Below, one piece after another: positions 19,721 through 41,352 of a stretch of 64,000 bases of DNA; the stretch's first letter is position 1, and every line of letters begins with the position of its first letter. A program made the position numbers and the translations under genes. The notes under the pieces were generated by a model. It saw only the letters and a program-made list of their open reading frames with translations, was not told the origin of the DNA and ran no database searches. The stretch lies in IMG/VR virus record IMGVR_UViG_3300050505_000468, positions 1-64,000 of that record. One strand, written 5' to 3'. The stretch comes from a virus. Taxonomy: Duplodnaviria > Caudoviricetes.

Positions 19721-19723
19721 GGC

Positions 19724-23768: not shown

Positions 23769-24628
23769 GGGATAACGGGGATGATCCTTCCGTCATAACC
23801 GACAATGCCTTCGCTGTAGACTGCGCCGTTGGAGATGCGTGTTTGGCGCTCTACGACTTGCAGCGGCACGACCAAACTCTGCGGGAGAAACGTGGCTGGC
23901 ACAACGCGTGGATCTTTCTCTGGGAACGACGGCTCACGTTCAAACACTCGTGTCGTATCCGCATACGAGTCCCAAAACGCCGTGGAGTAATCTAGTAGCC
24001 AATCGGTGATTTCGTAGCCTGCGTCAAGCAGCCCCCAGCACCATCGGGTTTGCCCGTAGTATCCTGCACGGTAACCGGCTTCTGGATCGTCGAGATAGAG
24101 GGGGAGGCCTTCATAACCCTGGGCAAGCGCCGCATCGACCGCGCGGCGGGGCGAGATGCCGATGAATACGGCTGCCACATCGCGGGCGCGGATCATGGTT
24201 TCGGAGTGCGGCCAGACGCCGCCCGAGTACATTCCCGTCCGTGGACGGGCGGCGAGACTTTCGGCCAAGTACCGGTCGAAGCCATCTTGGGTAAAAATGT
24301 AGTCGTCTTCCATCAGAATGAAGTCGGTCACCGCTGGCGCAGCGGAACGGATGGCCGCCGCGAAGCTTGCATAGGACAGGCCGGCGTTCGGGCGGCGGAG
24401 GATCCGGACCGGCGTCCCGCCGAGAACGGGCGGGATCTCGGCCACGTACCCATCGCCCGGTCCCCCTTCGGCAAGCACGACGCAAATGCTCGAGAGCCCA
24501 TGCTTCAGGCGGGCGAGCGAGGCGACGTGCTCGCGAATATAGTAGGTGGGGTCCGCATTGTAGCGCGCACAGTGTCTGTTTCGCGGGCCCGTCCACGCGG
24601 CCACAATGTATTCGATGCGCGCGCTCAT
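23741..24628 (-). CDS. putative GT-A glycosyltransferase
   Basis: RPNAGLSY, ILMEDDY. Confidence 0.6.
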   Translation of the reverse strand: MSARIEYIVAAWTGPRNRHCARYNADPTYYIREHVASLARLKHGLSSICVVLAEGGPGDGYVAEIPPVLGGTPVRILRRPNAGLSYASFAAAIRSAAPAVTDFILMEDDYIFTQDGFDRYLAESLAARPRTGMYSGGVWPHSETMIRARDVAAVFIGISPRRAVDAALAQGYEGLPLYLDDPEAGYRAGYYGQTRWCWGLLDAGYEITDWLLDYSTAFWDSYADTTRVFEREPSFPEKDPRVVPATFLPQSLVVPLQVVERQTRISNGAVYSEGIVGYDGRIIPVIPCTSATVTS

Positions 24629-25392
24629 TCGATGAGCTCGAGGCCGGCGTAGGGGTGATCGCCGAGAACCCGGCGCTGCTCCTCGATCAAATCTTCGGAT
24701 GTCCGAACCGGTTCTTCCCAGATCGTGTACACGCACGGATGCACGAACCGCAAGGACGAGCCGGGGCGCCATGGGAAAAACAGCGTGTCGAGATAGTTCT
24801 GGCGAAACTCCTCGTGATGACCATGCACACTCATCTTGTACTGCATCGTCCTACGCGATTGGGCGTAGCCGAAGTGGAGCACGGGCTTCGGTTGTAGATC
24901 GGCGGGGAGCGAGGCATCGAGAGTCAGCGGGTGGCGGAGATCCACGATTCGGATCGGGGTAAACTGGTCGAGGACCCGCCAGTTGAAAGAGCGCCAGAAG
25001 TTAGCGAAGTTCGCCATCCAGCGCCCTGCGCGGTTTTCGGATTTAACGCCAGAGAGCGCTCGCGCTACCACGCCTTCGCACCACACTTCGTCAGCATCGA
25101 CGACGAGGTACTGCTCGGCGCCGATGCGCTCGGCTTCGGCGTGCATCTGCATTCGATGGACGTGTTCGGCATGCGCTTCGATGCGGTGCCACACCACGGG
25201 CTTTGTCGCGAAGCGATGCGCTTCACGGAGTAGCTCTTCTTCGGTATCCGGGCAAAGAAGCTCGCTGGCCTTGCCGTAACTCGGATCCCTTGTGTAGAAA
25301 AAGTGAAGCTCGTCCACCGCATCCTGCACCGATCGTACGGACCACGCGAGATACTCCTTACCATAGTGAAGGGCCCAGCATGCGATCGTCAC
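24625..25392 (-). CDS. GT2-like glycosyltransferase
   Basis: LVVDADEVW, VLHFGY. Confidence 0.7.
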   Translation of the reverse strand: MTIACWALHYGKEYLAWSVRSVQDAVDELHFFYTRDPSYGKASELLCPDTEEELLREAHRFATKPVVWHRIEAHAEHVHRMQMHAEAERIGAEQYLVVDADEVWCEGVVARALSGVKSENRAGRWMANFANFWRSFNWRVLDQFTPIRIVDLRHPLTLDASLPADLQPKPVLHFGYAQSRRTMQYKMSVHGHHEEFRQNYLDTLFFPWRPGSSLRFVHPCVYTIWEEPVRTSEDLIEEQRRVLGDHPYAGLELIE

Positions 25393-26234
25393 GGGCTTTC
25401 TCCTAAAAGACGGCCGACGCCTTCGTCTACGCCACGCCGAAAGGTCCACTCTTGGCAAAGCAGTCGGTGTAATTCCCAGCGCAACTTCTCCGCGCGGGCA
25501 GGATCCATCAAAAGCCGCTGGATGCGCGCCGGCAATTCATCGATGGGCGCGGTTTCCAGATGCACGCCATCGGAGAGTGGGTAGGGATCGAGCACCGTCT
25601 CGCTGATAACGGGCAGGGCGTAGGCCGCCGCTACGGCGAAGCGCAGCGGTGCTGTCACCGGCGCCGGATACTGCTGGGCGTTCACTATGATGCGGGTCGC
25701 CCGAAACACTCTGTCCTTCTCCTCGAAGGTCCACGCGTTCGGCGCTTCGCGAAGGCCGCGCTTCCTGCAGGTCGCGTAGAGCGATTCCCTGCGGCCGTGC
25801 GCGTAGCTGTAGTGGCAGAAGTCGTACTCCTTCGGGCCATCCATCCCGTGCGGGCGAAACTCGGGATGCGATCCGAGAACTACGAAGCGTAGCCGGCTGT
25901 CCTTTGCCGAGGTGAGCCTATCGCTTGACCAGGCCTCGTCGAAGTAGGTTAGCACTTCGTCTAGTTGGGTTCCGAGCGGCCGCGCATCGGGGGCATCGAA
26001 ACGTTCCATGTTCCACCAGACGAGCTTTGCGCGCCGGTCTCCCGCGCGCGTGCGCGCTGATTCAATCGCCGGATACGTTTCGCCATTGATGGGAGTCGTG
26101 ATGTAAATGGCATCCCGCTCGAGATCCATTTCGTCGAGTAGGCAGGTCTCGTACCCACTCACCTCGACCAGCCGCCAAAAGTCCGCATACGAATCGTACT
26201 CGTGCCGTGTTCTGGCAAAGATCACTTCGGACAT
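25389..26234 (-). CDS. putative glycosyltransferase (CgeB-like)
   Basis: RIIVNAQ...LRFAVAAAYALPVISE. Confidence 0.6.
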   Translation of the reverse strand: MSEVIFARTRHEYDSYADFWRLVEVSGYETCLLDEMDLERDAIYITTPINGETYPAIESARTRAGDRRAKLVWWNMERFDAPDARPLGTQLDEVLTYFDEAWSSDRLTSAKDSRLRFVVLGSHPEFRPHGMDGPKEYDFCHYSYAHGRRESLYATCRKRGLREAPNAWTFEEKDRVFRATRIIVNAQQYPAPVTAPLRFAVAAAYALPVISETVLDPYPLSDGVHLETAPIDELPARIQRLLMDPARAEKLRWELHRLLCQEWTFRRGVDEGVGRLLGESP

Positions 26235-26238
26235 CGGG

Positions 26239-27222
26239 TCACTCGACGGTCGCTATCTTGACTTCCGGGATGGGTGGCGGGACCGACAAGGGATCGGGCG
26301 CGGGCAGCACGAGCGGCGCGGCGAGCAGGGACGCCTCGGTTGGCCACCGATCGTAAAACAGCGCCGAGTCGGGGTGCCGGGCGCCAGGGCGCGAGCCCTG
26401 CTCGTTCGCGCGCCGTAGCGCATCACGCGCGTTGGCATCGTGGACGCGCAGGCCGTGCGCCCCGTACACGCGAAAACCGAGCTTCCAGATCCAGCAGCCG
26501 ACTTCGGTGTCGGCGGCGTATGTCTTGTAAATCGGATTCCACCAGGCCTTCCCTTCGGGATCGCCCTGCGCGCGGGCGACGGCCATGCCCACATCGCGGC
26601 GTATTACGCCGAAATTCGAGTAAATGTGGCCGTGGATCTGCTCGAACGTGTGTGGGCCGCGGAGGTCGAACTCGAACGCGACAGCACCAATGTCCGGCGC
26701 GCCATGCATCATCATCACCGCCATCTCGAGCATGCCGGGCGTCTGGTATTCGGCATCGTCGTTGAAGTGCGCGACGTAGGGGTAGCCGAGGTCGACCGCT
26801 TGCGCGAAGCCTGCGTTGAAGGCCTTCACAGCGCCTGGCAATGGCGGGCGCTGCTCGATCAGAAGCACGTCCGGCTGGGCACGGAGCCACTGCACGCTGC
26901 CGTCGGTCGATCCGCCGTCGACCACGATCATGAGGTAGTGGTTCGTGCCAGCAGCAATGCGGACCGACTGCACCGCTTTTTCGAGATAGGATCGGCGATT
27001 GTAGGTTCCAAAGACCACGGCCACGCTCCGCTCGCGCGGGCGGCGATTGATAGGACCGATCACTTTGGGCGGAGGTGTCGGCCGGGCGTTTCTCACCATC
27101 GGCATGGACGGCGGCATGGGCCGTTCCGGCGTGTTGTTCGGCGTCGCCTGCTTTTGGTTCGGAAAGCGCACCTTGCGTTCGACGAAACGCTTCCGACCGT
27201 TGAAACCGTTGTTGTATGTCAC
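26239..27222 (-). CDS. glycosyltransferase family 2
   Basis: GTYNR, VVDGGSTDGS, HFNDD. Confidence 0.88.
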   Translation of the reverse strand: MTYNNGFNGRKRFVERKVRFPNQKQATPNNTPERPMPPSMPMVRNARPTPPPKVIGPINRRPRERSVAVVFGTYNRRSYLEKAVQSVRIAAGTNHYLMIVVDGGSTDGSVQWLRAQPDVLLIEQRPPLPGAVKAFNAGFAQAVDLGYPYVAHFNDDAEYQTPGMLEMAVMMMHGAPDIGAVAFEFDLRGPHTFEQIHGHIYSNFGVIRRDVGMAVARAQGDPEGKAWWNPIYKTYAADTEVGCWIWKLGFRVYGAHGLRVHDANARDALRRANEQGSRPGARHPDSALFYDRWPTEASLLAAPLVLPAPDPLSVPPPIPEVKIATVE

Positions 27223-27277
27223 GCGGTTTCACGGATACTACCAGTGCTGTCACGGACTGTGTTAGCTTTCAGGCAAA

Positions 27278-28276
27278 ATGCCGCGGGCGTTCATTACGGG
27301 GATCAATGGGCAGGACGGCTCGTACCTTGCTGAGCTTTTGCTCGAGAAGGGGTACGAGGTTTTCGGGATCATCCGGCGGAGCTCGACATTCAACACGAGC
27401 CGCATCGATCACATTTTCGATGATCTCCGGCTGTTTCACGCCGATTTGCTCGACCAGAGCTCGCTCGTCACTGCGCTGAAGGAAGCTCAGCCCGACGAGG
27501 TCTATAACCTCGCTGCCCAGAGCCACGTGGCGGCGAGTTTCCAGCAACCCGAGTACACGATGCAGTCCACCGGCATCGGCTTCTTGCGGCTGCTCGAAGC
27601 GATCCGTGGTTTAGGCCTCTCGCCCAAGATCTATCAGGCGTCAAGCTCCGAGCTCTTCGGCAGCAATCTAGCCCCGCAATGTGAGACCACGCGGTTCTTT
27701 CCAGAGAGCCCGTACGCGGTCGCCAAGCTCTACGCCCACGAAACCGCCCGGCTCTACCGCGAAGCGTACGGCATGTGGATCGCCTGCGGGATCCTCTTCA
27801 ATCACGAGAGCCCACGGCGTGGCGAACGGTTTGTGACCCGCAAAGTCACCCGCGCCGCGGCGCGCATCAAGCTAGGACTTCAGGACAAGCTTTCGCTGGG
27901 CGCGCTCTGGCCCCAAAGGGATTGGGGCTACGCGCCCGACTTTGTGGACGGCATGTGGCGGATCTTGCAGCTCGACAAACCCGTCGATCTCGTACTCGCC
28001 ACCGGCGTGTCCCATACGGTGGAAGAGCTATGCAGTGTCGCCTTCGGCCTTCTGAACCTCGACTATCGGGAGTTCGTAGTGCACGATCCGAAGTACGACC
28101 GGCCGCGCGAAGTCCCGCATCTCTGCGGCGAAGCGTCGCGTGCCAAGGAGCTCATTGGCTGGGCTCCCGAGCTCGGGTTCACCGATCTCGTCCACACACT
28201 GTTGCAGCACGACTTCGCCCTGGCCGAACGCGAGCTCATGACCGGAATTCCCACCACGGAGCGCACCCTTGTCTAG
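27278..28276 (+). CDS. gmd: GDP-mannose 4,6-dehydratase
   Basis: [36 protein letters not shown]. Confidence 0.96.
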
Positions 28277-29225
28277 CCCCACCTTCTGGAAAGATAAACG
28301 TGTCCTGGTCACCGGTGGCCATGGCTTTCTGGGGCGGCATCTTTTGACCGCGCTCGGCCTGCTCGGTGCCGATGTGCACGCGCCCCCGAAGGAAAAGCTT
28401 GATCTCCTACAGGAACCTGCACTCGCACGCGTGCTTGGCACGAACGTCTATGACCTTGTAATTCACCTTGCTGCGGTGATCGGCGGCATCGGCAGAAATG
28501 CGATCGATCCGGGGCGCATCTTCCGCGACAACATGCTGATGGGCATGAACGTGATCCACTGCGCGCACCTCTACGGCGTACCCAAAGTCGTTTGCCTTGG
28601 GAGCATCTGCGCGTATCCGAAGTTTTGCGACATCCCGTTTCAGGAATGCGATCTGTGGAATGGCTATCCGGAAGAAACGAACGCGCCCTACGGCTTCGCC
28701 AAAAAGATGCTCACGGTGATGAGCGACGCTTACCGAAAGCAGTACGGCCTGAACTCGATCGTCATCTACCCCTCGAACCTGTACGGACCCTACGATCACT
28801 TCGACCTCGAAACCTGCCACGTGATCCCGGCCATGATCCGGAAGTTCACCGAGGCCCGTAATGCACGCGCCGCTTCGGTCACGCTGTGGGGCGATGGCAG
28901 CGCCACGCGCGAGTTTCTGTACGCCCCCGATTGCGTCGAAGGGATCCTCTTGGCGGCTGAGCACTACGATTCGTCCGAGCCCCTGAACCTCGGCACGGGC
29001 GCCGAGATCTCGATAGCCGAGCTCGCCGAGCTCATCCGGCGAATGACCGGCTACGAGGGGAGCGTCGTGTACGACACAACGCGTCCGAACGGCCAGCCGC
29101 GCCGGCGCGTCGATGCAACGCGGGCGCAGAGGCTCATCGGCTTTTCGCCGGCGACTTCACTCGCCGATGGGCTCAGCCGCACCGTCGATTGGTACTTGAG
29201 CTCGGTCGAACGGTCGCGGCTGTAA
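28269..29225 (+). CDS. fcl: GDP-L-fucose synthase
   Basis: [38 protein letters not shown]. Confidence 0.94.
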
Positions 29226-29241
29226 AGATCGTCATCGTCCG

Positions 29242-29909
29242 GTCCCGAGCTACGCGCGCCCGGGATGCTCTTCACCGCGGTATCTCCGCCAGAATAGGTC
29301 CCGAGCTCATCGCGCCCGGGATGCTCTCTTCCTCGTTAAGCCCCAGTCCCGGAACTCTTCGCGCCCGGGATGCTCTTTCGCTGCGGAATGTAGGCATAGT
29401 CCCGGAGCTCATCGCGCCCGGGATGCTTTTTAGCGGAGTCTCAGTTTGGTCCCGATCTTTGTTTCGCGATCAGGATGCTCTTCGTTGATCGACGTCGTCT
29501 TCCCGGCCTGTGCGCAGCCGGAGTGCTCTCTTCTTTTGCTAGCCTCTGCGCGAGCGCCGTCCCGGAGTGTTCGTGCTCCGGAATACTTTACGCTTCTCCT
29601 AGGTAGCCCCGGCGTACTCGCCGCCGGGATGCTCTTACCGAACCAAAGCAATCGAGCGGTCCCCGCCTACTCGTGGCCGGGATACTCTTGCACGTCAAAC
29701 TTTCGGGCCGTCCCGAGCTCATCGCGCCCGGGATGCTCTTCACAACGGCGGCGCCGCATCTCGGAGCGCCGGGTCCCGAGCTCATCGCGCTCGGAGTGCT
29801 CTTCCGGAAGTTAACTTCAGAGATGTCCCTGGCTATGCGCGCCAGGGATGCTCTCATCCGCGAGATCGCGAAGGTCCCGGCCCTACTCGTGGCCAGGATA
29901 CTCTTCCAA
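29242..29909 (-). CRISPR. atypical CRISPR-like array: 13 divergent repeats, ~11-27 nt spacers
   Basis: Repeat left edges at 29242, 29298, 29346, 29399, 29449, ~29500, 29559, 29606, 29659, 29710, 29773, 29825, 29874; GTCCC...GGGATGCTCT core shared with the canonical arrays. Confidence 0.85.
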
Positions 29910-29993
29910 CCGAGCTTGTCAGAGACCGCGGCGCCCGGTGAGAAACGCCGGGTGCGCGAGGCTACTCTACCAGCGCGCTTACTCCGCTGTCGA
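29910..29993 (-). promoter_or_regulatory. leader and promoter of the short-spacer array
   Basis: TCAGAGACC...CGAG leader motifs; TCGACA-N18-TAGAGT on the - strand. Confidence 0.6.
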
Positions 29994-30620
29994 CTACGGC
30001 TGGAGGGACAGGGTGACGAGCGAGGTCGGGACGACGATCAGGATCATCGTGGCGCTCACGGTGCCGTTGGTGCCGGTGCCTACCAGGCTGTAGGTGAACG
30101 TCCCGGCGCCAGGCGTATCGACGCCGAGGTCGGATCCGTACTTCACATCGAGCACATCGATCGCCGGAAGGAGAATGGTGGGGTGCAAGAAGGCTGCACC
30201 GCCGGAATCTACCTGAAGGACGATATCGGCCGTTGTTTCGCCGCCGGCCTCGCAGCGCGCGCTCAGCCAGATCACGACCGACTCGTCGGCCGCTACGGGA
30301 ATGTCCTGGGTGAGCAGGGTCACCGTGCCGTCGACCGGAATATCGTCGCTGTTCTCGAGCACGAAGATCGCGCCGAGGCCGGTGCCCGATGACGACTCCC
30401 TGATCCAGCGGCCTGGGCCATTGATGGGGCCGACCACGTTCACGTTGTCCGGCGTCGCCGTCGAAAACAGGCTGAAGCGGTAGCGAGCGTTGGCCGCCGT
30501 CACCCAGCAGATCGCCCCATCGGGGAGCTTGTCCGTGATGTAGTTCTCGAGTGCATCGTCGGCGCCGAGCACGGTGGCGCGCGGGCCGAGGATACGAAGG
30601 GCAACAGCGGAGATGTCCAT
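29994..30620 (-). CDS. putative virion spike/receptor-binding protein (paralog 2)
   Basis: N-terminal ~75 aa nearly identical to 30635-31273; beta-rich C-terminus. Confidence 0.6.
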   Translation of the reverse strand: MDISAVALRILGPRATVLGADDALENYITDKLPDGAICWVTAANARYRFSLFSTATPDNVNVVGPINGPGRWIRESSSGTGLGAIFVLENSDDIPVDGTVTLLTQDIPVAADESVVIWLSARCEAGGETTADIVLQVDSGGAAFLHPTILLPAIDVLDVKYGSDLGVDTPGAGTFTYSLVGTGTNGTVSATMILIVVPTSLVTLSLQP

Positions 30621-30634
30621 GACGCGGGCGATCC

Positions 30635-31273
30635 TTAGGCGAAAGTGCCGATCGAGGTGAGGGGCGCGGTGTAGGTGACCATGCCGATGCCGGCGATGAC
30701 GAGGGAGTTCCCGCCGGCGAGCGCCGCCGAGATGGCGAGTACGACGGGGCCCGCCTCGGTGGCGTCGATCAAGATCGGCACGTTCACCGCAATCTCGTTG
30801 CCAGCCAGGTTCGGGATGGGGATTTCGATCATCACGCTGGCGCCGGTCGAGCCCTGACGCGCGGTCACGCGCAGCACCGTGGGTGTGGTGACCGTGCAAG
30901 TGATCGTGATGACCGCAGTGCCCACCCGGAAAGCGCCCGGCTCGGCGGGAAACGAATCGGAGGTCGTGATTGTGACCGTGCTCGATCCGCTCGTGATCGT
31001 GCCAAGGCTCGCGCCGCCGTCGAAGGCAAGGCCGGGGTTGCCCGCGCTCTCCTTCAGCCACTGCCCGGGCCCGTGGATCGGATCCACGATATTGATCCCG
31101 TCCGCCGTCGCCGCCGAATCGAGGTGGAGGCGGAAAAGGGCAGCCGCTGCGGTAACCCAGCACACGGACCCGTCGGGCAATGGGTCGGTGATGTAGTTCT
31201 CGAGCGAATCGCCGGCGCCGAGAACGGTCGCGCGGGGGCCTAGAATGCGCAGGGCAACAGAGGATTGGTCCAT
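30635..31273 (-). CDS. putative virion spike/receptor-binding protein (paralog 1)
   Basis: VALRILGPRATVLGA...ENYITD.LPDG..CWVTAA...GPG.W; preceded by a GATTT-class promoter. Confidence 0.6.
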   Translation of the reverse strand: MDQSSVALRILGPRATVLGAGDSLENYITDPLPDGSVCWVTAAAALFRLHLDSAATADGINIVDPIHGPGQWLKESAGNPGLAFDGGASLGTITSGSSTVTITTSDSFPAEPGAFRVGTAVITITCTVTTPTVLRVTARQGSTGASVMIEIPIPNLAGNEIAVNVPILIDATEAGPVVLAISAALAGGNSLVIAGIGMVTYTAPLTSIGTFA

Positions 31274-31420
31274 GAGGATGGATGACACCAGCCTCCTGGC
31301 CCCTGGGTCAATAAATCCACCCAAAACTTTGCCGGGAAAGCGCTCGCCGCGAATCCCATACGCCCGTCTCGGGATATCCGCTCCCGAAATGCTCCGCGAG
31401 CCGACACTCGTCGCATGGCC

Positions 31421-31890
31421 GTCCCGAGCTTATGCGCGCCCGGGATGCTCTTAACAACCTTGCTTGACCGCCGACAAACCGGGGCGGACGTCCCGAACTC
31501 ATCGCGCCCGGGATGCTCTTCACAGTTTGAGTGCCAGCAGCTCGATTTGCTGGCGCGCACGGTCCCGGGCTCATCGCGCCAGGGATGCTCTTCACAGTCC
31601 GGCCAAGGCCATCGGCGAGTGAAGTCGCCGGCGAGGTCCCGAGCTCATCGCGCTCGGGATGCTCTTCACAGCCGGACGATCACATGTGCGTGTCACTCAC
31701 GCGGCGGTCCCGAGCTCATCGCGCTCGGGATGCTCTTCACAGATGGAAAGCGCCGAAAACGGTGGGACCGAAGCGGGAACGTCCCGAGCTCATCGCGCTC
31801 GGGATGCTCTTCACAGTTGAGGAACGCGTAGAGCCTCTTGACCTCTACCATCGTGTCCCGAGCTCATCGCGCTCGGGATGCTCTTCACAG
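31421..31890 (-). CRISPR. CRISPR array, 7 repeats of 36 nt, ~32-38 nt spacers
   Basis: Repeats at 31421, 31490, 31562, 31636, 31707, 31781, 31855; degenerate copies at the left (trailer) end. Confidence 0.96.
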
Positions 31891-31997
31891 TTGTGTTGTC
31901 AGAGACCAGTACGGACGCTGGGTTAGGGTGCGGGTTTCGAGATCCCGGCGAAACTGTACGGTTTGGGGATCCTAACGCCCATCGCAGAAGCCGTCCA
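31891..31997 (-). promoter_or_regulatory. CRISPR leader and promoter
   Basis: TCAGAGACCAG motif; TGGACG-N17-TAGGAT on the - strand. Confidence 0.65.
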
Positions 31998-32039
31998 CGG
32001 TGCGTCCAAATTGCCGCAGCTCAAGGCTAATGTCCGATC

Positions 32040-32087
32040 GGCGAGCGGCGGCGGATGATTTCGATCCACTCCGCCGCTCGCCTTTTT
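32040..32087 (+). terminator. strong hairpin with T-tract (intrinsic terminator-like)
   Basis: GGCGAGCGGCGG/CCGCCGCTCGCC 12-bp stem followed by TTTTT on + strand. Confidence 0.65.
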
Positions 32088-32110
32088 GCGGTCAATGATC
32101 CCGAACTACC

Positions 32111-34831
32111 TCACTCGTCGCCGTTCAGAACCCCGTCATCATCGCGATCGACACCGAACCGATAGCCTGTGCCGAGTGGCATGCAGGTAAAGGTCAGGGC
32201 GTCGTGCGAGGCATGCGCGGACTGAAGCACGGTCGCCGTCGGTACGACTCCCGTCGAGGCCTGGTCAGTTTGGAACTGACTGCCGCCAAGGTAGGAGTAG
32301 CCGTGGACGCAACCGTTGACGACGCCGCGGGCGACAAGGTCACAGTCCCCTGCGTCCGCACGCGCCAGAAGCAGCGTGAGGCGTGCCAAGGATGCGGCCA
32401 GCGGGTGATTGGAAATCGTTGCCTGCTGACCCACGATCGGCTTGTGGTTCGTGGGGAACGAGAACAGGAACGACTCCACTTGACGGCGTAGCGGATCGCC
32501 GGCCTCTCCACTTGGAAACCCTTCAGGGTTCGGAAAGAAGGGGAAGGCTTGCGAAAAGCCGATCGCGTGGAGAAACCTGAACACGCTGTCGGCGTCGCCG
32601 GCATTGCTGTAGCCGAAGCCGCGGATTTGATCACCCATGAAACCCATCTGGCCCGGGATCGGCTCGACACCCGGCGTCCCGTCGGGCAACCCGAACATGC
32701 CGATCTTGGTGTAGAGGTTTCTGAGGTGCGGGATCTTCACGGCTTGATTGAATCCGCCGATCGTCGCTTCCTCGCCGTCCGTTCCGAAGAATCCCGGAAA
32801 CCGGACGCCGAATTCACTGTTGGCTTGCGGATCGAGGCGATGGCAACCCTGGCAACTGATGAAGCCTTCGGATTGTCTGGTGAAGAAGAAATTCTGACCC
32901 GCTGCCTGGTCTGACGTCAGCGAATCGTCGAGATTTCTGTTCGGGTTCGGTGGGTACATCACCTGGGTTTGGAAATCGATGTAGGCCTGCATGTCGGACG
33001 CCGCCAATTCCGAATCGCGACCCAAGAGACCCACGAAGCCTGCTTGGAACTGGCGGAGTGCCTCGCGTTCATTGAAGGCGCCGCTGTCCGGCTGCGCGTT
33101 CGGCTCGGTCAAAGAACCGGTTCGATCGCCACGCCAGTGCATGGGGCCGTGATTGGCAAGACCGCGAAGGCTTTGCGTGGTCATCGGGCCCTTCATCGGC
33201 GCAAAGGACGGATCGGTCACGAACGGGTTCAACATGATCTTGAAGGGGTTGTTGTTCACCTCCGGATCACCATCCGGATCTCCAAGCGTCCAGCCGATGT
33301 CGTCGTTGTCGCTGAACACGTGGCAGGTCGCGCAGGCCGAATCCCCGTGTGCGCTCAGGCGCGCGTTGTAGAGGAATGGCCGGCCGTGCGTGATGCTCGG
33401 CGGCTCGGGGTTGAACATTGCGACGTGATCGACCTCTTGCCGCGATTTGGTCTTCACGACCGAGATCGCGTTGTCGAAGCGCGTGAGCACGTAGAGCTGG
33501 TCGCGGTTCTCGTCGAGAACAATGCCCGTGGGGCCGCCGCCGGACACCGCAATCTGGTCGTCCGCGCTCGGCACGAAGGTGTCGTCCTCGAGCTTCTTCG
33601 TCTTGTAGATGCCTACCTTGCTCGAGCCCATGGCTGCTACGTAGAGGTTCGCCCCGTTCGAGGAGACCGCCATCTGGGTCGGTAGCGCCAAGCTGAGATC
33701 GCTTTCGGCATTCGGCACCGGATCGCAGCAGCTCGAGTAGTCGATATGCTTGTTCAAGTGCCGAGGGGCGACTCCGCCGCCGGGCGTGAGCACCGTGATT
33801 CGATTCCGGTTGTGATTGCCGCGTACGCTGTGGCCCGCGAAGATCCCCGGTCCCTCGAACCGCTGGTCGTTACGCGCGTCGGTGTTCGAGACGTAGATCT
33901 TCCCGCTGACCGGGTTCACGGCCATGTTGTAGAGCACCGTGCCGACGCCCTTGAAAAATCCACTGGGCACTTCCCGTGGGGGATTGGCCATGGCGTCGAT
34001 CGTGAACACGTCTTTGTCGGGCAACGCCAAGTTGACGTGCTCGTCGAACGTGCGGCCGATGTCGTCTACCCAGTGCGTCCCATCGAACTTCACGATCTGG
34101 GCCACGTGCGGCTGGTCGATGCCGGCGTGGTTCGTGGTAGGCGGCGCGTTCGGTAGACCCAAGAATTCGGTGATGATCGTGGTTTGGTTGCCCGTCTTGA
34201 ACCCGGCCGCGTAGACTTTCTTGCCATCCGGGGAGACAGCGAGGGCGCGGGGCGTGTCCGAGAACAGCGTGATGATGCTGATCGGGCCGCCGGTGAGCGA
34301 TGCGTCGAGGTGACCCGTGTCGTAGACCCACACGTCGGCGCGACCTACGCCCGGTGTCGTGAGCTCGGGATCGAACGGGATGTTCTGCCCGCGGTGCGCG
34401 GTCGTAATGAACGCCCGGGAGCGCCCGGCACCGGCGAACACCACGTCCCGCGGTTCATCGCCGACATCGAGCGTTCGGGTGACCTTGCCGGATCCGCTCG
34501 AGTCGACTTCCACGATGCTCACGCTATCGGAGACGTGGTTCACGACCCAGATCTCGCTATTCGTGCGCGCAGCGACTGCCACGGGCTCGAGGCCCACAGG
34601 AATAGAGGCCTTGTGGTTGAGATGCCCATTGCCCGTTTGGAACACTTCGAGCCTGGCATCGGGGCTGTTCACCGCAAAAAGCAGCTGGCCGTTCGGTGAC
34701 AGCGCGAGGGGGCGCACCTGCCCGCTCTCGAATGTCACCACGTTATCGCTAGCAAAAGCTTTCTCGGACCACACCACTCCGATGCATACCAGTACGGCAA
34801 TATGCACCCACAACTTCAATTGGTTTCTCAT
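32111..34831 (-). CDS. secreted YVTN/YncE beta-propeller plus di-heme cytochrome c (peroxidase-like) protein
   Basis: Signal peptide, propeller repeats (VGLEPVAVA, VGDEPRDV), CATCH and CQGCH heme motifs, KIPHLRNLY. Confidence 0.85.
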   Translation of the reverse strand: MRNQLKLWVHIAVLVCIGVVWSEKAFASDNVVTFESGQVRPLALSPNGQLLFAVNSPDARLEVFQTGNGHLNHKASIPVGLEPVAVAARTNSEIWVVNHVSDSVSIVEVDSSGSGKVTRTLDVGDEPRDVVFAGAGRSRAFITTAHRGQNIPFDPELTTPGVGRADVWVYDTGHLDASLTGGPISIITLFSDTPRALAVSPDGKKVYAAGFKTGNQTTIITEFLGLPNAPPTTNHAGIDQPHVAQIVKFDGTHWVDDIGRTFDEHVNLALPDKDVFTIDAMANPPREVPSGFFKGVGTVLYNMAVNPVSGKIYVSNTDARNDQRFEGPGIFAGHSVRGNHNRNRITVLTPGGGVAPRHLNKHIDYSSCCDPVPNAESDLSLALPTQMAVSSNGANLYVAAMGSSKVGIYKTKKLEDDTFVPSADDQIAVSGGGPTGIVLDENRDQLYVLTRFDNAISVVKTKSRQEVDHVAMFNPEPPSITHGRPFLYNARLSAHGDSACATCHVFSDNDDIGWTLGDPDGDPEVNNNPFKIMLNPFVTDPSFAPMKGPMTTQSLRGLANHGPMHWRGDRTGSLTEPNAQPDSGAFNEREALRQFQAGFVGLLGRDSELAASDMQAYIDFQTQVMYPPNPNRNLDDSLTSDQAAGQNFFFTRQSEGFISCQGCHRLDPQANSEFGVRFPGFFGTDGEEATIGGFNQAVKIPHLRNLYTKIGMFGLPDGTPGVEPIPGQMGFMGDQIRGFGYSNAGDADSVFRFLHAIGFSQAFPFFPNPEGFPSGEAGDPLRRQVESFLFSFPTNHKPIVGQQATISNHPLAASLARLTLLLARADAGDCDLVARGVVNGCVHGYSYLGGSQFQTDQASTGVVPTATVLQSAHASHDALTFTCMPLGTGYRFGVDRDDDGVLNGDE

Positions 34832-34906
34832 TAGCCTATTCCTTTATTGGGGTCGCGATGACTCATCATATTTCATTTCTCCCTTTCACTCAAACGCTGT
34901 GCGGTT

Positions 34907-34990
34907 GTCCAGGGCTATGCGCGCCCGGGATGCTCTTCACAGACACCACTGCACGTCCCGGGCTACTTGCGCCCGGGATGCTCTTTACCG
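34907..34990 (-). CRISPR. two-repeat mini-array with a 12-nt spacer
   Basis: Divergent repeats at 34907 and 34955; spacer ACACCACTGCAC. Confidence 0.8.
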
Positions 34991-35791
34991 ATTCACCGCG
35001 TAGGCGGGGATCGGACGGGCCATCGAAAATCGTGTGGGCGTGTGGCCGGGATCGGTCACCATGAGCCCACTTGGCAGTCGTCCCATTTCGGGAATTTCGT
35101 ATTTGCGCCACCCGATGTTGTTCAGGTGCACATCGCGGAGGGCAATGCCCTTCGAGGTCAAGTGGTAGAGCGTGCCGCCGAGAAGTTCAGCGCCGGGGAG
35201 CTCCATCAATTTCTCGGCGTAGTTCAGCATGCCTTCGATCGAGCTTCTGACGCGGACGGACGGTTCGACGTTGTTCCAGGCGCCGTTTTCGTTGTGGTAG
35301 AGCTCGGCGTTCACCTTGTACTTGCCAAGCGCATAGCGGACCCGGTTGAAGCCAGCCTGACCCAGTTCTTGGAGCGTGCGTTCACTTGGGACGACGCCTG
35401 GCACTTGGGCGAGGAACATGTCTGCTTCTTCGCGCACGATCGCGAACACCGGAAACTCTTCCATCTCGAAGGGCATGTCCGGTAACAGACGAACGATGCG
35501 CGCCGACCGGGCAAGGCCGGCCATCAGCAGTGGGTCGAGTGTGCCGAGCTTCGACCACATGGGCGCTTCGGTAGGGTCCACGGTGATCTTGACGACCCAG
35601 GGGGATTCAAGCGCGTAGACGACGCCCCAGTGGCCCATGCCGAGCTCTTCGCCGAGCGGACCGAACTCGAGGGTCTTGGCGATGCGTACGCGCCGATCGG
35701 CCGGGGAAGCCCATTCGCGCAGGGTCGACGCAGGCGTCGGGGCCTTGAGCACCGTCTCGTGCCGGACGGTCGAATCTTGGGGCAGCGTCAT
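34985..35791 (-). CDS. protein kinase-like (PKL fold) protein
   Basis: LGMGHWGVVY, VVKIT, RDVHLNNI, DPG. Confidence 0.75.
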   Translation of the reverse strand: MTLPQDSTVRHETVLKAPTPASTLREWASPADRRVRIAKTLEFGPLGEELGMGHWGVVYALESPWVVKITVDPTEAPMWSKLGTLDPLLMAGLARSARIVRLLPDMPFEMEEFPVFAIVREEADMFLAQVPGVVPSERTLQELGQAGFNRVRYALGKYKVNAELYHNENGAWNNVEPSVRVRSSIEGMLNYAEKLMELPGAELLGGTLYHLTSKGIALRDVHLNNIGWRKYEIPEMGRLPSGLMVTDPGHTPTRFSMARPIPAYAVNR

Positions 35792-36129
35792 TTGGACAGG
35801 CGCCCAAGAAGGAACCCTGCCAGAAGGGAGACCGTGGCCACGCCGATGGCCACGGGAAGCGCGACGCTTTGCTCATCGCAGTTCGGCATTTGATCGATGT
35901 ACCGATTCATCCCGTCCCAGTCGCCCACGTAGCCGCGGATGATCTCGTCGCAGTGCGGGAGCGAGGGAAGGGCGCCCTGCTCTTTCACGCAGTTGTCGGT
36001 GCGCATGCCGTAGCAGTGGGGCAGAAGCGACACGGCGCGAACAGCCAGCGCGTGCTTCTGTTCGGCGGTCAGGTTTTTACCCTGCTCGAGCGCCTGATCT
36101 TTGGTGAGCTCACCGAGGGATGTGTACAT
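35788..36129 (-). CDS. Cys-containing protein with C-terminal TM anchor
   Basis: MYTSLGEL start; hydrophobic C-terminus. Confidence 0.55.
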   Translation of the reverse strand: MYTSLGELTKDQALEQGKNLTAEQKHALAVRAVSLLPHCYGMRTDNCVKEQGALPSLPHCDEIIRGYVGDWDGMNRYIDQMPNCDEQSVALPVAIGVATVSLLAGFLLGRLSK

Positions 36130-36134
36130 GGGAT

Positions 36135-36665
36135 TTACCTGAGGCCGCGTGGGCGCCGGCGGCCGACGTTGAAACACTGGAGCTTGCAAGGCCCGGTGTA
36201 GCCGATCTTCACTTGCATCACTTCTTCCGCGATGGCGTCTGCGATGAATTCTACGGGATCGCTGTCCCGATCTTCCCAGGATCGCATCCAGCGGGCCCAC
36301 TGATCGGGGTTGAAATCCTCGCGCCGGCGGCGGATGGCTGTTCGGTCCCTGCCCAGCGCAAACTCCCCGGGGTAGAGCGCATCGGTCGCGTGGCCGAGCT
36401 CGTGGGATAGGATGGCCAGGACGATCCGCTCGTCCTGTTCGGCGAGCTCGGGTGCCACGATGATTTCTGTTCCATCGTCCCGGCAGGCCCCAAAATGCCG
36501 GGGCGCATCGTGGACCCAGGGAGCCACTACAAACTCTGTCGATTGGCAGCGCACGAGCCCCGCTGTAACGAACTCCTCGAGCACGGCCTCGTAGTACGGC
36601 TCGAGAATCAGACTCGCTTCGTATACCGACAGATCGGTCTGGATTTCGGGGCAGGCACCGTTCAT
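36135..36665 (-). CDS. putative zincin metallopeptidase
   Basis: HELGH motif followed by EFIAD. Confidence 0.65.
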   Translation of the reverse strand: MNGACPEIQTDLSVYEASLILEPYYEAVLEEFVTAGLVRCQSTEFVVAPWVHDAPRHFGACRDDGTEIIVAPELAEQDERIVLAILSHELGHATDALYPGEFALGRDRTAIRRRREDFNPDQWARWMRSWEDRDSDPVEFIADAIAEEVMQVKIGYTGPCKLQCFNVGRRRPRGLR

Positions 36666-37078
36666 CGGGCGTGGCCGCGCGCTCCACCTGCGATCTGCTG
36701 GGCCAGGGCCGCGACCTGCTGCTGCGTAATCATGCCTGCCGCGATGCCAGCGCGGAGCTGGCGCTGCGCTTCATCCGGGGTAATCCGGAGCATCAGCGCT
36801 TCGTGGCACTGCGCGCAGCCGACGTTCGGGATCATGCCGCCTGCTCGGCGATCCATGTTCCAGCCCGGCGGAAGGCGCCCGTTGGCCGCGTACACGAACT
36901 CTTGCCAGAACACGGTGAGGTCATTCGGGTGACCCGACCGGTCGCAGTTCGTCGAGTAGGTGATCCCCTCGTTTCCGATCTTGGTCGTCGCCGAGTAGTG
37001 GTTGTCGACACCGAGGCCCGCAAGGACACCGAAGCCGTTGATGATGTTTCTCACGTCGTTCATGTCGTCGCGGCTCAT
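36662..37078 (-). CDS. hypothetical protein
   Basis: 138 aa; LAGLG motif; CAQC. Confidence 0.6.
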   Translation of the reverse strand: MSRDDMNDVRNIINGFGVLAGLGVDNHYSATTKIGNEGITYSTNCDRSGHPNDLTVFWQEFVYAANGRLPPGWNMDRRAGGMIPNVGCAQCHEALMLRITPDEAQRQLRAGIAAGMITQQQVAALAQQIAGGARGHAR

Positions 37079-37129
37079 AAATTCTGTTCTCCTTCAAACT
37101 TTGCCCATTACATCGTTCGGGGCGGCCAT

Positions 37130-37594
37130 TCAACTATCGGCGGCGCACTGCCGCTCGGTGACGCGCAAATCGTGTACGGCCGACTCCAGGTGGTCGTTCA
37201 TCAGCCGATCGAGCTCGTCGGGCGCGAAGATTTTCAGCGCTTCAGAAATGCCGTGCTCACCAACATACGCCTTGGCCCGGGCTATCGCTTGCGCTTTGAT
37301 CTCGGCCGCCACGGTCGGATCGATCCTGCCCGTCGCGCTTGCCGCCTTGATGTCTGCCACGGTCTCCTGCTGCGTCGCCTTCACCGCGATCACGATCGCG
37401 TCATACAGGCGCGCTACCACGCCCTTCACGTACTCGTGATCGGCGATGGCCTTCCGTGCCATGACCCAGCGCATCGTCTGGGCCGCCAGGCCTCCGATAA
37501 GGCCGATGGCGATGTTCACCAGCAGCGGGGTCAGCGATGCCGTGAGACCGGAGACGAGGTCGGTTAGGAAGGTGGACGCGGCGGCGAGCACCAT
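37130..37594 (-). CDS. holin-like membrane protein (LL-H-like)
   Basis: N-terminal TM, AVKATQQ...AIARAKAY...LESAVHDL pattern. Confidence 0.55.
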   Translation of the reverse strand: MVLAAASTFLTDLVSGLTASLTPLLVNIAIGLIGGLAAQTMRWVMARKAIADHEYVKGVVARLYDAIVIAVKATQQETVADIKAASATGRIDPTVAAEIKAQAIARAKAYVGEHGISEALKIFAPDELDRLMNDHLESAVHDLRVTERQCAADS

Positions 37595-37695
37595 GGGTCG
37601 ATTGTCGCAGCGGCTGGGCAAATGCGTCCAGAAATCCAGCGGGAACTTCGCCTGGTAGGCACGATCCCGGCAGGTTTGTGGAGCATGACGCGCTC

Positions 37696-38932
37696 GCCCC
37701 GAGCTCATCGCGCCCGGGGTGCTCTTTACGGCTGCAAAGGAAAGATTGACCTTGTCCCGAGCTCGTCGCGCCCGGGATGCTCTTACCGCGCGGTCGTTCC
37801 GTCCCGAGCTACGCGCGGCCCGGGATGCTCTTCACAGTTTGCAGGTCCGAGCGATTCACCGCAGTTCTGGCAGTCCCGAGCTCGTCGCGCCCGGGATGCT
37901 CTTCACCGAACGAATTCGATCGTGTCGACGACGGGCATCGCTACCCGTCCCGAGCTCATCGCGCCCGGGATGCTCTTCACAGTCATGGCTCTCACTACTC
38001 GCCGAGGCTTTGGACGCCGTCCCGAGCTATGCGCGCCCGGGATGCTCTTCACAGATTCTGCGACCGAGATCAGGCTAGGGTCATTCGCCGGTCCCGAGCT
38101 CATCGCGCTCGGGATGCTCTTCACAGCTTATACCGCTCGCGTGTCAACCTCGGACCTTGCTCGTCCCGAGCTCATCGCGCTCGGGATGCTCTTCACAGAG
38201 CGCGGGTGCCGACCTCGCCCAATGGGCCGCGTCCGTCCCGAGCTCATCGCGCTCGGGATGCTCTTCACAGAGCGACGACGAAGTGCTCAGCGCGTCGACC
38301 GACATCGAGGTCCCGAGCTCATCGCGCTCGGGATGCTCTTCACAGTTTTGTTCGCAACGATCAACGCGAGAAGCTGCGCAACGTCCCGAGCTCATCGCGC
38401 CCGGGATGCTCTTCACAGCGAGTGACTCGGACGTATCAACGATTCCGGATTCGTGTCCCGAGCTCATCGCGCCCGGGATGCTCTTCACAGAGCAAGCGAG
38501 TGTAGGGGGAGCCGGGCAGCGCGCCAGTCCCGAGCTCATCGCGCCCGGGATGCTCTTCACAGCCCACATTCACCAACTCGCCGTCGCTCTGCATCTCGCG
38601 GTCCCGAGCTCATCGCGCCCGGGATGCTCTTCACAGCGAGGAGTGAGGAAAACAAATGCATGCGTCTTGTCCGTCCCGAGCTCATCGCGCCCGGGATGCT
38701 CTTCACAGTCGGCCTGGTTGTCGCCGCGCTCACTTGGGTCGCTAAAGCGTCCCGAGCTCATCGCGCCCGGGATGCTCTTCACAGAGAGGGCATCGGCGAC
38801 TTCCCCGTCCGTGATCGATCTGAAGTCCCGAGCTCATCGCGCCCGGGATGCTCTTCACAGGTGTTTGCGGTGTGCAGCGTGCTGCCGCACGAATGCGTCC
38901 CGAGCTCATCGCGCCCGGGATGCTCTTCACAG
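37696..38932 (-). CRISPR. CRISPR array, 18 repeats of 36 nt; 15 spacers of ~35-40 nt plus two short trailer spacers
   Basis: GTCCCGAGCTCATCGCGCYCGGGATGCTCTTCACAG repeated from 37696 to 38897. Confidence 0.98.
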
Positions 38933-39050
38933 TTATATTTTCAGAGACCAGCACATTCGCGGGCTTAGAAAGCGGTCTGCGAGTGGCCCATCTGGGTGTG
39001 CGGTATGAGCGGATCCTACAGCCTGGCGGGTGTGCTGTCTATGCTATCAC
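38933..39050 (-). promoter_or_regulatory. CRISPR leader and promoter with operator-like boxes
   Basis: TCAGAGACCAG...TGCGAG; TAGACA-N17-TAGGAT on the - strand overlapped by GTGATAGCA/GACAGCAC. Confidence 0.7.
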
Positions 39051-39131
39051 AAATGGCCCACTTCTATCGGCAGATCTGGGGCTTTGCGAGCAGTGGCTGG
39101 GAACCGGCGATCACTGCACCGCTCGCACTTT

Positions 39132-39541: not shown

Positions 39542-40312
39542 TTATTGGGTGGCAGCCGGGATCTGAAAACGGATCGTTGCTCCCTTTCCTGTGTCACCCT
39601 CGGCCCAGATGCGCCCATGGTGTTCGTCGATGATGCGCCGGCACATGGCCAGGCCAAAGCCCGATCCGGAATACGTCCCATCGTCCGGGTGCAGGCGCTT
39701 TCCCATCTTGAAAATCGTTTCGGCGTGTGCAGCCTGAAACCCGATGCCGTTGTCGGCGAACGCTACCTCGATCACGGCCCGATCGCGCACCGTGACGGTG
39801 ACGCGGATTTCGGGGCGGGTGCGCCGGTATTTCAGCGAGTTGCTGATCAGGTTCTGGAACACTTGCGTGATCAGCGGGGCCGAGCCGTAGGCGCGCGGCC
39901 AGAGGGCGGGGATTTTGATGATCTTGGCATCCGTTTCGCGGATCGGGATCCACATGGCCTCGATGGCTTCATCGAGTGCGGCGTGTAGATCGAATGGGCC
40001 CATCACGTCGGCAAGATCGTCTTCGTTCCGCGTGGCAGCGCGCATGTAGTCCAGGAAGTCTTGGTGCTTTTTGGCCAGGCGCCGGCAGCCGGCGGTGAGC
40101 TGGCCGATCCATTCCTTGGCTTCGGGATCCAGGTGGCCGTTCAATTTCAGGGCGATGAGGTCGGCGAAGCCGGCGATGGTGCGGAGCGGCTCCTGGAGAT
40201 CGTGACTCATGAAGCATGCGAATTCTTCGAGATCGGTGTTCATGCGCTCGAGCCTTTCTACCATCGGCGCGCACGGATCGTCCGGGGGAACGAGAACGGC
40301 GGGAAGGGTCAT
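39542..40312 (-). CDS. sensorless histidine kinase (HisKA plus HATPase)
   Basis: SHDLQEPLR, QNLISNSLKY, DNGIG, GSGFGLA. Confidence 0.92.
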   Translation of the reverse strand: MTLPAVLVPPDDPCAPMVERLERMNTDLEEFACFMSHDLQEPLRTIAGFADLIALKLNGHLDPEAKEWIGQLTAGCRRLAKKHQDFLDYMRAATRNEDDLADVMGPFDLHAALDEAIEAMWIPIRETDAKIIKIPALWPRAYGSAPLITQVFQNLISNSLKYRRTRPEIRVTVTVRDRAVIEVAFADNGIGFQAAHAETIFKMGKRLHPDDGTYSGSGFGLAMCRRIIDEHHGRIWAEGDTGKGATIRFQIPAATQ

Positions 40313-41352
40313 GGGTGGTGTTCCTTCGGTGGGGCTTCGGGCGGCGGCGCAATGGTGCGCATGCTGAAATAGCCGGCTACTAGCTGGAGGATGACGGCCA
40401 TGATGCCGGCGATGACGGCGTGCCAGATCTTGAACTTGTAGACGCGGGCTTGCTTTTCGTCTTCTTTGCCCACGGCCAGGATCTCGGCGTGGGCTTCCAT
40501 CGTGATGCTCTGGCGCTCGTGCTCGTCCAATTCCTCTTCGTGCTCCGCGAGCTCCTTTTCGACTTCCTGGCGCCACTGGATGAACTCGTTCAGTTGGTGG
40601 CGCATCGGTGGCCGGACGCTCGTGCCGCGGACCAGGATCGTGTCGTGCTCGCTCACGACGGACGAAACGCGTTCGACTTCCTTGATCAGCTGTTCGACCT
40701 TGGCGCGGAGATCGAGCAGAACGGTGACCGTGGTGCGGGAAACGCTGATGACCGCGTCCTCCCGTTCTTCTTTGGCCAGGACCACGGCTTCGTGCTGCCC
40801 GCTTGTATTGGCGCGGCGGAGGTTCGCTTCGGCCTTCTCGAGCTTCCGGTAATTCTCGGCGGCCTCGGGCGGCGCCGGCACGGTGTGGCGCCAGCGTTCG
40901 ACCGCCAGAAGGACGCGCCGGTAGATGCTCGCCGGCTGATCGCTTTTCAGCACGTAGTCGGCGGCGCCGTGGGCCACGAGCCGGCAGGCGAGCTCGATCC
41001 GGCTGTCACCCGTGGCAACGACTATTGGGATATGGGGGAAGCGGCTGTGCAGGAGGTCGAATGTGTCCGAACCGGAGGCGTCGGGCAGATTCAGATCCAG
41101 GAGCACCACGTCCACGTTCCCGCGCTCGAGGTGGCGGAAGGCGTTTTCGAGTGTGGCGGCTTCGTGGACTTCGACGACGGTGGACAGGTCCAGGAAGATT
41201 TGCCGGAGGAGCTTTCGGGCTAGCGGGTCGTCCTCGATCAGCACGGCGCGGAGGTAGCGCTCGGGTCTCGAAATGCGTCCGCTCTTCTCCAGAAACTCGC
41301 GACTTGCCGCACTGGTCAATCTGCCAGGTGGTTTTTTTTCGTCGCCGTCCAT
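40309..41352 (-). CDS. receiver domain plus coiled coil plus C-terminal TM protein
   Basis: LIEDD, VVLLDLNLPD, GAADYVLK; IWHAVIAGIMAVILQLVAGYF. Confidence 0.85.
   Translation of the reverse strand: MDGDEKKPPGRLTSAASREFLEKSGRISRPERYLRAVLIEDDPLARKLLRQIFLDLSTVVEVHEAATLENAFRHLERGNVDVVLLDLNLPDASGSDTFDLLHSRFPHIPIVVATGDSRIELACRLVAHGAADYVLKSDQPASIYRRVLLAVERWRHTVPAPPEAAENYRKLEKAEANLRRANTSGQHEAVVLAKEEREDAVISVSRTTVTVLLDLRAKVEQLIKEVERVSSVVSEHDTILVRGTSVRPPMRHQLNEFIQWRQEVEKELAEHEEELDEHERQSITMEAHAEILAVGKEDEKQARVYKFKIWHAVIAGIMAVILQLVAGYFSMRTIAPPPEAPPKEHHP

Follow-up and report, generated by a model that had tools for sequence, protein, structure and literature searches.

The first 64,000 bases of the 138,061-bp IMG/VR virus record IMGVR_UViG_3300050505_000468 (hereafter, the window) contain four clustered regularly interspaced short palindromic repeat (CRISPR) arrays, yet no cas gene. 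We found that the same record encodes a Cas12m protein, the effector of type V-M systems, about 72 kb beyond the window arrays. We consider it quite likely that these are satellite arrays of a type V-M Cas12m system residing on a 138-kb extrachromosomal element, and that they supply guides against competitors together with one guide, T1, for self-repression.

A single repeat family, reading GTCCCGAGCTCATCGCGCYCGGGATGCTCTTCACAG on the plus strand, occurs at all four places in one orientation (Table 1), as the initial annotation of the window had described. A profile search recovered 38 repeat units there (11, 7, 2 and 18 from left to right, with one spurious match at 29907 dropped); the repeat pattern read backwards, as a control, matched nowhere in the record. 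A twelfth unit of the first block, at 29874-29905, was missed by the profile and was seen in one other analysis only. The 31.4-kb and 37.7-kb arrays hold 6 and 15 spacers of at least 30 nt, and the earlier estimate of about 21 long spacers is thus exact. Degenerate repeats and short spacers characterize the 29.2-kb and 34.9-kb blocks and, in the 37.7-kb array, the end far from the leader. The polarity proposed earlier, with degenerate copies at the left and leaders at the right, is borne out both by these left-hand units and by the homology of the right flanks of the 31.4-kb and 37.7-kb arrays, in which the motif GGTCTCTGA directly precedes the first repeat. Elsewhere in the record the family recurs in the opposite orientation in three further blocks, which brings the total to 76 repeat units; the seven array blocks together extend over 96 kb. 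The four leader-proximal repeats at 31636-31890, all of an “A” stem variant, are identical to a four-repeat block at 38091-38345 in the middle of the main array, and the eight newest repeats of the main array are of a “G” variant. The identical “A” blocks suggest that the two arrays are related by duplication or recombination.

The initial annotation had inferred an effector elsewhere on the element or in the host, with Cas12j and Cas12m as candidates. It is on the element, and it is Cas12m. The 646-amino-acid product of the gene matches the PDB chain 23vw_A, labeled “Cas12m”, with E=5.8e-46 in two stretches (residues 13-396 and 455-601); Cas12m2 (8hio/8hhl) and UnCas12m4a (23vu) are among its other PDB matches. 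Because no Cas12j chain appears among the 18 PDB matches at E<=10, Cas12j is ruled out as the effector. Among the 143 predicted proteins, this one alone matches the PADLOC model Cas12u1 (E=1.1e-75); V-U1 is the older name of V-M (PMC11013384). Family counts for the 143 proteins refer to the 25 of 40 Pfam, 25 of 39 PADLOC and 25 of 72 PHROG families that were listed, and in the Pfam and PADLOC sets no second protein is assigned to a Cas12 model. The effector also contains the Cas12f1-like TNB domain PF07282 (29.6 bits against a cut-off of 26.3), with weak matches to TnpB models. This domain is found in the record at 112389-112553 only, making cas12m its sole TnpB-like gene; with no Cas1 in a six-frame search of the record, this upholds the claim that the window is devoid of cas genes. 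No adaptation module was detected: in addition to the missing Cas1, no non-Cas12 cas family is among the listed PADLOC families, cas2 and cas4 having had no separate search. The closest of 57 homologs found is 41% identical to the effector. A single-protein search of IMG/VR retrieved no relatives; a family alignment, used instead, retrieved 45 loci on contigs of up to 406 kb.

In 30 of these 45 loci a simple detector places the start of an array at most 0.35 kb downstream of the gene; no array was detected in 11, and four are arranged otherwise. More than one repeat block lies within 10 kb in 12 of the 45, counted whether or not the blocks share a repeat family. At the far end of the 110,728-bp record of one relative, L054, repeats of its cas12m array recur in inverted orientation (110355-110690); the element described here is thus not the only one with dispersed arrays. 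Two pairs of contigs from different records (L029/L045 and L052/L053) have cas12m arrays that are identical spacer for spacer, with no turnover visible.

The architecture of the repeat is that of a type V guide. On the minus strand it is predicted to fold into an 8-bp stem that joins positions 13-20 to 28-35, one base from the 3' end. Across 61 distinct repeat copies, 88.7% of the cells of this stem are paired, a level that none of 500 shuffles reached; seven of the eight pairs have changes on both sides (2 of 500 shuffles), and sliding the partner lowers the pairing to 63% or less. The stem abutting the 3' end of the transcribed repeat, noticed in the initial annotation, is thus supported by folding and by compensatory changes alike. 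Because many of its pairs are G.U, the hairpin is better paired on the proposed CRISPR RNA (crRNA) strand than on the opposite one (88.7% vs 78.4%). All invariant and nearly invariant columns lie within positions 7-36. A pseudoknot/triplex has been reported for GoCas12m. The repeats parsed in 23 of the related loci differ in sequence, and the profile of the record's repeat matches none of them; those that were fully recovered are mostly about 36 nt long, lie on the cas12m strand and have a hairpin abutting a ...GAC end. The earlier type V inference, with the repeat read on the minus strand, is right, because a cas12m gene is present, because the hairpin is kept and is better paired on the proposed strand, and because repeats of like design accompany cas12m in 23 viral loci.

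The arrays might instead serve an effector encoded by the host, class 1 or other, with the cas12m of the record being incidental. The window arrays are 72-81 kb away from cas12m, and mobile elements are known to borrow host machinery. Nevertheless, repeats of the same family directly follow cas12m, the strand asymmetry of the hairpin fits type V, and Rfam returned no family at E<=1 for the repeat and no CRISPR-DR match. Further, an exact-match search with the 21-nt repeat core encountered no array in 185,579 representative species genomes (five isolated partial matches) and none in other IMG/VR contigs. Within the bounds of such exact-core searching, no host class 1 system with the repeat in the opposite orientation, the finding that the initial annotation had considered fatal to its inference, came to light. 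We therefore regard a host effector as highly improbable. In a metagenome scan the core was found only in one contig, L069, which is 100% identical to the record over 1,637 bp. A profile search of both strands for opposite-strand repeat copies, such as a trans-activating CRISPR RNA (tracrRNA) would contain, gave nothing better than a 13-nt match inside cas12m at E=0.7, although short anti-repeats could be missed in this way. By every feature tested, the system is type V-M.

The residues D303, E502 and D592 occupy the RuvC motif columns of a 32-protein family alignment, in which C563, C582 and C585 are conserved; from the RuvC motifs and from this alignment, we take the three acidic columns to be the catalytic ones. 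The first of them holds N in 10 and H in one of the 32 proteins. Eight Cas12m orthologs have been tested, four of them with the D-E-D triad, and all bind DNA but none cut it (PMC11013384). By this analogy, the effector is probably a DNA-binding, non-cutting Cas12m. A self-match of 34 of 36 positions with a T-rich flank, such as that of T1, would be hard to tolerate for a cutter.

From these features and from the characterized orthologs, we propose that one cas12m serves all seven array blocks. The window arrays would be transcribed on the minus strand from their own leaders, and Cas12m would trim each repeat to a 5' handle of about 30 nt that holds the hairpin, as it does in orthologs (PMC11013384, PMC10442227). 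In the mature crRNA of Cas12m, a repeat part of about 30 nt is joined to a guide of about 20 nt, and a heteroduplex of about 18 bp is read (PMC11013384). The complex would bind double-stranded DNA next to a protospacer-adjacent motif (PAM) over 18-20 bp or so, and it would block transcription or replication without cutting, as the orthologs do even with a D-E-D triad. Most of the long guides are probably aimed at competing elements. T1 most likely represses the gene run that it precedes, and perhaps cas12m too. The compact units with a period of 48-63 nt would also encode functional guides.

Four of the record's 32 long spacers match the record itself at 75% identity or more, compared to none in 20 rounds of shuffling. 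The best of them, T1, is the only near-perfect self-match among 55 spacers. Its match is contiguous from the repeat-proximal end, and its target, with the 5' flank TTTTTCT, fills the 59 nt that separate a terminator-like hairpin (record 108649-108664), which closes the preceding ORF, from the Shine-Dalgarno (SD) sequence and ATG of the open reading frame (ORF) 108722-109195. The target spans the promoter-like TTGGCG-17-TACACT. It ends 13 nt before this ORF, the first of four on the same strand, one of which has a DnaJ domain; after these come 0.4 kb and then cas12m, 2,052 bp downstream of the target. The probability that T1 would fall by chance within 2.1 kb of the 2.9-kb cas12m-array locus in 138 kb is roughly 5%, a figure that is unbiased for this record only.

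The other three, T2-T4, match inside genes of the element imperfectly, and those of T3 and T4 lack T-rich flanks, as would be expected of guides that came from relatives. The likeliest reading of these matches is that the guides were acquired from related elements. Searches with the proteins encoded by the T3 and T4 target genes retrieved no relatives. The gene targeted by T2 converges with the arrays; as pure speculation, bound Cas12m could there stop array read-through into the antisense of the gene.

Among 223 spacers from the 23 parsed related loci, self-matches outside the arrays were found at three loci, lying inside the cas12m-array locus or no more than about 1 kb from it. In L054, a 36/38 match with the flank TTC falls inside the 5' end of that element's cas12m, and in L039 a perfect core of 30 nt lies about 1 kb past the array. 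In L015, two perfect matches lie on opposite strands in an ORF two genes upstream of cas12m, with flanks TGC and AGG. Searches of the three whole records (110.7, 47.1 and 95.7 kb), calibrated on our own record, where they recovered T1, T3 and T4, gave no strong matches outside the arrays other than those near cas12m; the L039 record has one further, weaker match (84%, E=7e-4).

Self-matching spacers could also be harmless accidents, acquired from the element or its close relatives and regulating nothing, which would be tolerated because Cas12m does not cut. That only one spacer in 55 is a near-perfect self-match speaks for this idea, as do the imperfect matches of T2-T4, the flanks of T3 and T4, the L015 targets and the varying neighbors of cas12m. 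It accounts less well for the exact fit of T1 into the gap between a terminator-like hairpin and the next SD/ATG, for the location of the best self-match in or within about 2 kb of the cas12m-array locus in four independent records, and for the L054 target, which has a TTC flank and sits in that element's own cas12m. We doubt this explanation somewhat, but it is a serious one.

Several facts weigh against the combination of competitor guides and self-repression that we favor. No external protospacers were found. With its D-E-D triad, the effector could in formal terms still cut DNA. The putative promoter under T1 agrees with the sigma-70 consensus at 8 of 12 positions, below the threshold of the scanner. 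The stretch between the gene run and cas12m (110363-110759) has no confident ORF, so the two may not be co-transcribed. None of the 45 related loci has conserved operon partners or upstream genes of cas12m. The two usable flanks, those of T1 (TCT) and T2 (CTT), point to no single PAM. Because the perfect targets of L015 have flanks that are neither T- nor C-rich, self-matches may be inert. Finally, the proximity of the relatives' self-targets to cas12m is partly built in, because they were found in windows of +/-10 kb around the gene.

The lack of external targets has the following scope. A distant-mode blastn search with 31400-38950 of the window had no match in a phage collection and none in a plasmid collection. 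For the newest spacer in each of two arrays, the 24 nt nearest the repeat have no exact match in IMG/VR. In a comparison of all spacers with 874 kb of retrieved loci, only the identical copy L069 matched. Six runs are listed, none of them an RNA run with the element. Contigs from four DNA runs show no differences where they cover the array; because they are broken over it, they are uninformative on spacer turnover.

The compact units invite a separate interpretation. The initial annotation had proposed that one effector is fed both full-length immune guides and short regulatory guides. The single cas12m agrees with the first part of this idea. The second part, the split into two kinds of guide, is not supported: the convincing self-guide is a full-length one, and the 36 short guides have no anchored self-match of 13 nt or more, the best being 12 nt. 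Three anchored matches reach 12 nt, compared to a shuffled mean of 0.81 (three or more in 3 of 100 shuffles), and all three lack a T-rich flank. By this measure the units do not resemble a regulatory mini-array, in which a spacer would have a short or partial seed match, with a PAM, to a promoter in or near the cas locus, and the spacer of the two-repeat mini-array has no target that we could find. When the functional repeat is taken as about 30 nt, such that the first six repeat bases count as guide, these units have guides of 13-33 nt, 34 of the 36 being at least 17 nt long; this overlaps the guide of about 20 nt in mature Cas12m crRNA. Their period of 48-63 nt is close to the length of one mature crRNA, about 50 nt. 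Reading the compact units as guides of near-mature crRNA size is offered as a reinterpretation rather than as proof.

The degenerate short-spacer blocks (29.2-29.9 kb, 34.9 kb and 124-126 kb) might be decaying, functionless remnants of arrays. Their degenerate repeats and irregular spacers, the lack of a target for any short guide and the lack of the acquisition gene cas1 would fit such decay. We deem it unlikely, given that the hairpin has been kept by both-side changes in seven of eight pairs, that the invariant positions all fall in the part of the repeat retained in mature Cas12m crRNA, that the period approximates one such crRNA, and that short spacers (13-28 nt) also occur inside the arrays of 8 of 23 related loci.

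A broader proposition, which we advance only tentatively and hold to be improbable as a whole, is that type V-M systems on large elements are built-in circuits of CRISPR interference as well as weapons. Full-length spacers would repress the neighborhood of cas12m, as may occur in four independent elements and here at a terminator-promoter junction. Dozens of units of about 50 nt with selected hairpins would be minimal guides against host or competitor genes, all served by one non-cutting effector from arrays set in co-oriented gene runs. Between about 12.8 and 71 kb most genes of the record lie on the minus strand, and between about 71 and 125 kb most lie on the plus strand; in each half, the arrays point the same way as the genes around them.

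The initial annotation had likened the element to large phages, a label that our searches do not support. Terminase_6N (PF03237), HK97 capsid (PF05065) and portal (PF04860) families are all absent from a six-frame search of the record. Further, no structural PHROG is found in 20 proteins scanned individually or among the listed families. By profile families, then, the terminase, portal and major capsid genes of a tailed phage are missing; divergent folds fall outside this test. The record could be a plasmid, a phage-plasmid or a chromosomal island, in which case its V-M system would be an ordinary one of the plasmid type. Its proteins include ParB, DnaB, a sliding clamp, an integrase, methyltransferases, sugar-nucleotide enzymes, a histidine kinase and response regulators; no transfer RNA genes were found in it; and V-M is strongly enriched on plasmids, while also present in some prophages (PMC11656645). 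On the other hand, IMG/VR lists the record as a virus with a CheckV completeness of 100, and it has an endolysin-like PHROG match, DUF3310 and ThyX, all common in phages. The structural proteins of novel phages often escape profile searches, and only part of the Pfam and PHROG families was listed. We find this non-phage origin nearly as credible as its converse, and the element is as likely to be a plasmid or phage-plasmid as a virus. The exact Cas12m protein is found on three contigs in a protein database, the longest of which, at 137,959 bp, compares with 138,061 bp for the record; this hints that the length of the element is reproducible between assemblies.

The system has much in common with characterized type V-M systems (MmCas12m2, GoCas12m and orthologs): a TnpB-derived effector of about 600 amino acids with a TNB zinc ribbon, carriage by mobile elements (PMC11013384, PMC10442227, PMC11656645), an array that directly follows the gene, 36-nt repeats structured in their 3' part and no adaptation genes. 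It differs in that its effector is at most 41% identical to any protein found, and in that one effector is accompanied by seven blocks over 96 kb, many compact degenerate units and one near-perfect self-guide. In the accessible literature that was searched, a set apart from Wu et al. 2022 and from supplementary tables, there is no description of arrays scattered over 96 kb, of compact units with a selected hairpin or of full-length self-guides near cas12m. The supplementary tables (134 Cas12m variants of PMC11013384; the MV-1 genome list) might already contain the record or mention self-targeting.

A September 2026 preprint on MvCas12m of the myxophage lineage MV-1 claims the first phage Cas12m (bioRxiv 10.64898/2026.09.14.751636). 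That system, too, is on a virus-catalogued element and has a D-E-D Cas12m with an adjacent array; it lacks cas1, cas2 and cas4, no tracrRNA is reported for it, and its spacers yielded no external targets. MvCas12m has 610 amino acids and one array of eight spacers, whereas ours has 646 amino acids, 76 units in seven blocks and self-matches. The 45 IMG/VR loci contradict the claim of a first and show Cas12m systems to be common in virus catalogs.

Regulatory mini-arrays and crRNA-like RNAs (tracr-L, scaRNA, CreTA and type I mini-arrays) likewise turn an effector on the promoter region of its own locus, and they have degenerate repeats and short spacers outside the main array (Shmakov et al., 10.1101/2023.03.03.530964). 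They use partial matches so that the nuclease does not cut. Here, by contrast, the self-guide is a full-length spacer of the main array, matching at 34 of 36 positions, which might be tolerable for a non-cutting effector, and it is the short units that have no detectable self-target. Plasmid type IV-A systems share nuclease-free interference on mobile elements, the lack of an adaptation module and a part in inter-element competition; transcriptional interference is described for them, as is self-targeting in Pseudomonas oleovorans (cited in PMC11656645). They are, however, multi-subunit complexes of class 1 that include DinG and have no sequence relationship to the present system. The type V effector Cas12j (CasPhi) of huge phages is compact as well and is encoded by large virus-like elements that have few or no other cas genes, but it is not represented among the 18 PDB matches of the effector described here. 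Cas12j cuts DNA.

Cas12m is under development as a compact programmable repressor and base-editor scaffold, and plasmid interference is the main natural role known for it on mobile elements. The element described here is a case of one effector with seven arrays, and natural self-repression by a full-length guide could be tested on it concretely and at low cost. Should the compact units prove to be real guides, the minimal natural crRNA of the Cas12m family would also be defined by them.

Table 1. Arrays, leaders, self-matching spacers and effector gene, with coordinates in the window unless the record is named.
Feature	Coordinates	Strand	Description	Basis
Array block	29242..29909	-	At least 12 degenerate units; short spacers of 13-27 nt (36-nt repeat bounds); period 48-63 nt	
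Promoter-like sites by the 29.2-kb block	29993-29964 and 29922-29895	-		Promoter scan
Same-strand ORFs between arrays	29994..37708	-	29994-31163 (389 amino acids), 32111-34831 (906 amino acids), 34985-35791, 36135-36665, 36662-37078, 37130-37708	
Array	31421..31890	-	7 repeats, 6 spacers of 32-38 nt; four leader-proximal repeats of the “A” variant (CCCGAGC stem)	
Leader of the 31.4-kb array	31891..32038	-	Homologous to the 37.7-kb leader; TAGGAT and GGTCTCTGA common to both	82% over 87 nt
Mini-array	34907..34990	-	Two repeats, 12-nt spacer (18 nt with a functional repeat of ~30 nt); upstream of the same-strand 906-amino-acid ORF	
Main array	37696..38932	-	18 repeats, 17 spacers (15 of 35-40 nt; leader-distal two of 22 and 11 nt)	
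Main-array leader	38933..39080	-	Promoter-like TAGACA-17-TAGGAT at 39041-39013	Promoter scan and leader homology
Spacer T1	38491..38526	-	34/36 to record 108673-108708 (+), outside the window	
Spacer T2	31598..31635	-	33/38 to window 29144-29181	
T2 target	29144..29181	+	Inside the 3' end of epimerase ORF 28269-29225, 60 nt from the last repeat unit; 5' flank GGCTT	
Spacer T3	38785..38824	-	35/40 to record 69154-69193 (minus), inside a 135-amino-acid ORF; flank GCAC	
Spacer T4	38419..38454	-	29/36 to record 67763-67798, inside a 141-amino-acid ORF; flank CTGG	
cas12m	record 110760-112700 (outside the window)	+	646 amino acids	PDB, PADLOC, PF07282
Array adjoining cas12m	record 112738-113640	+	Starts 38 bp after the stop codon	
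Further array blocks	record 124359-124973 and 125058-125746	+		

The ORFs between the window arrays include no cas family. The longest product, of 906 amino acids, was considered as an effector and ruled out; it is a lactonase-type beta-propeller, with a weak cytochrome c peroxidase-like match below the cut-off. The 389-amino-acid product has no family match. A 227-nt direct repeat of 71% identity lies at 30396-30622, inside the ORF of the latter, and at 31049-31275, overlapping its start. A sugar-nucleotide cluster at 18674-29225, with three proteins of the epimerase/GDP-mannose dehydratase type, a DegT-type aminotransferase and glycosyltransferases, ends 17 bp before the first array block. 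Directly beyond the main-array leader, a histidine kinase and a response regulator are encoded at 39542-41352.

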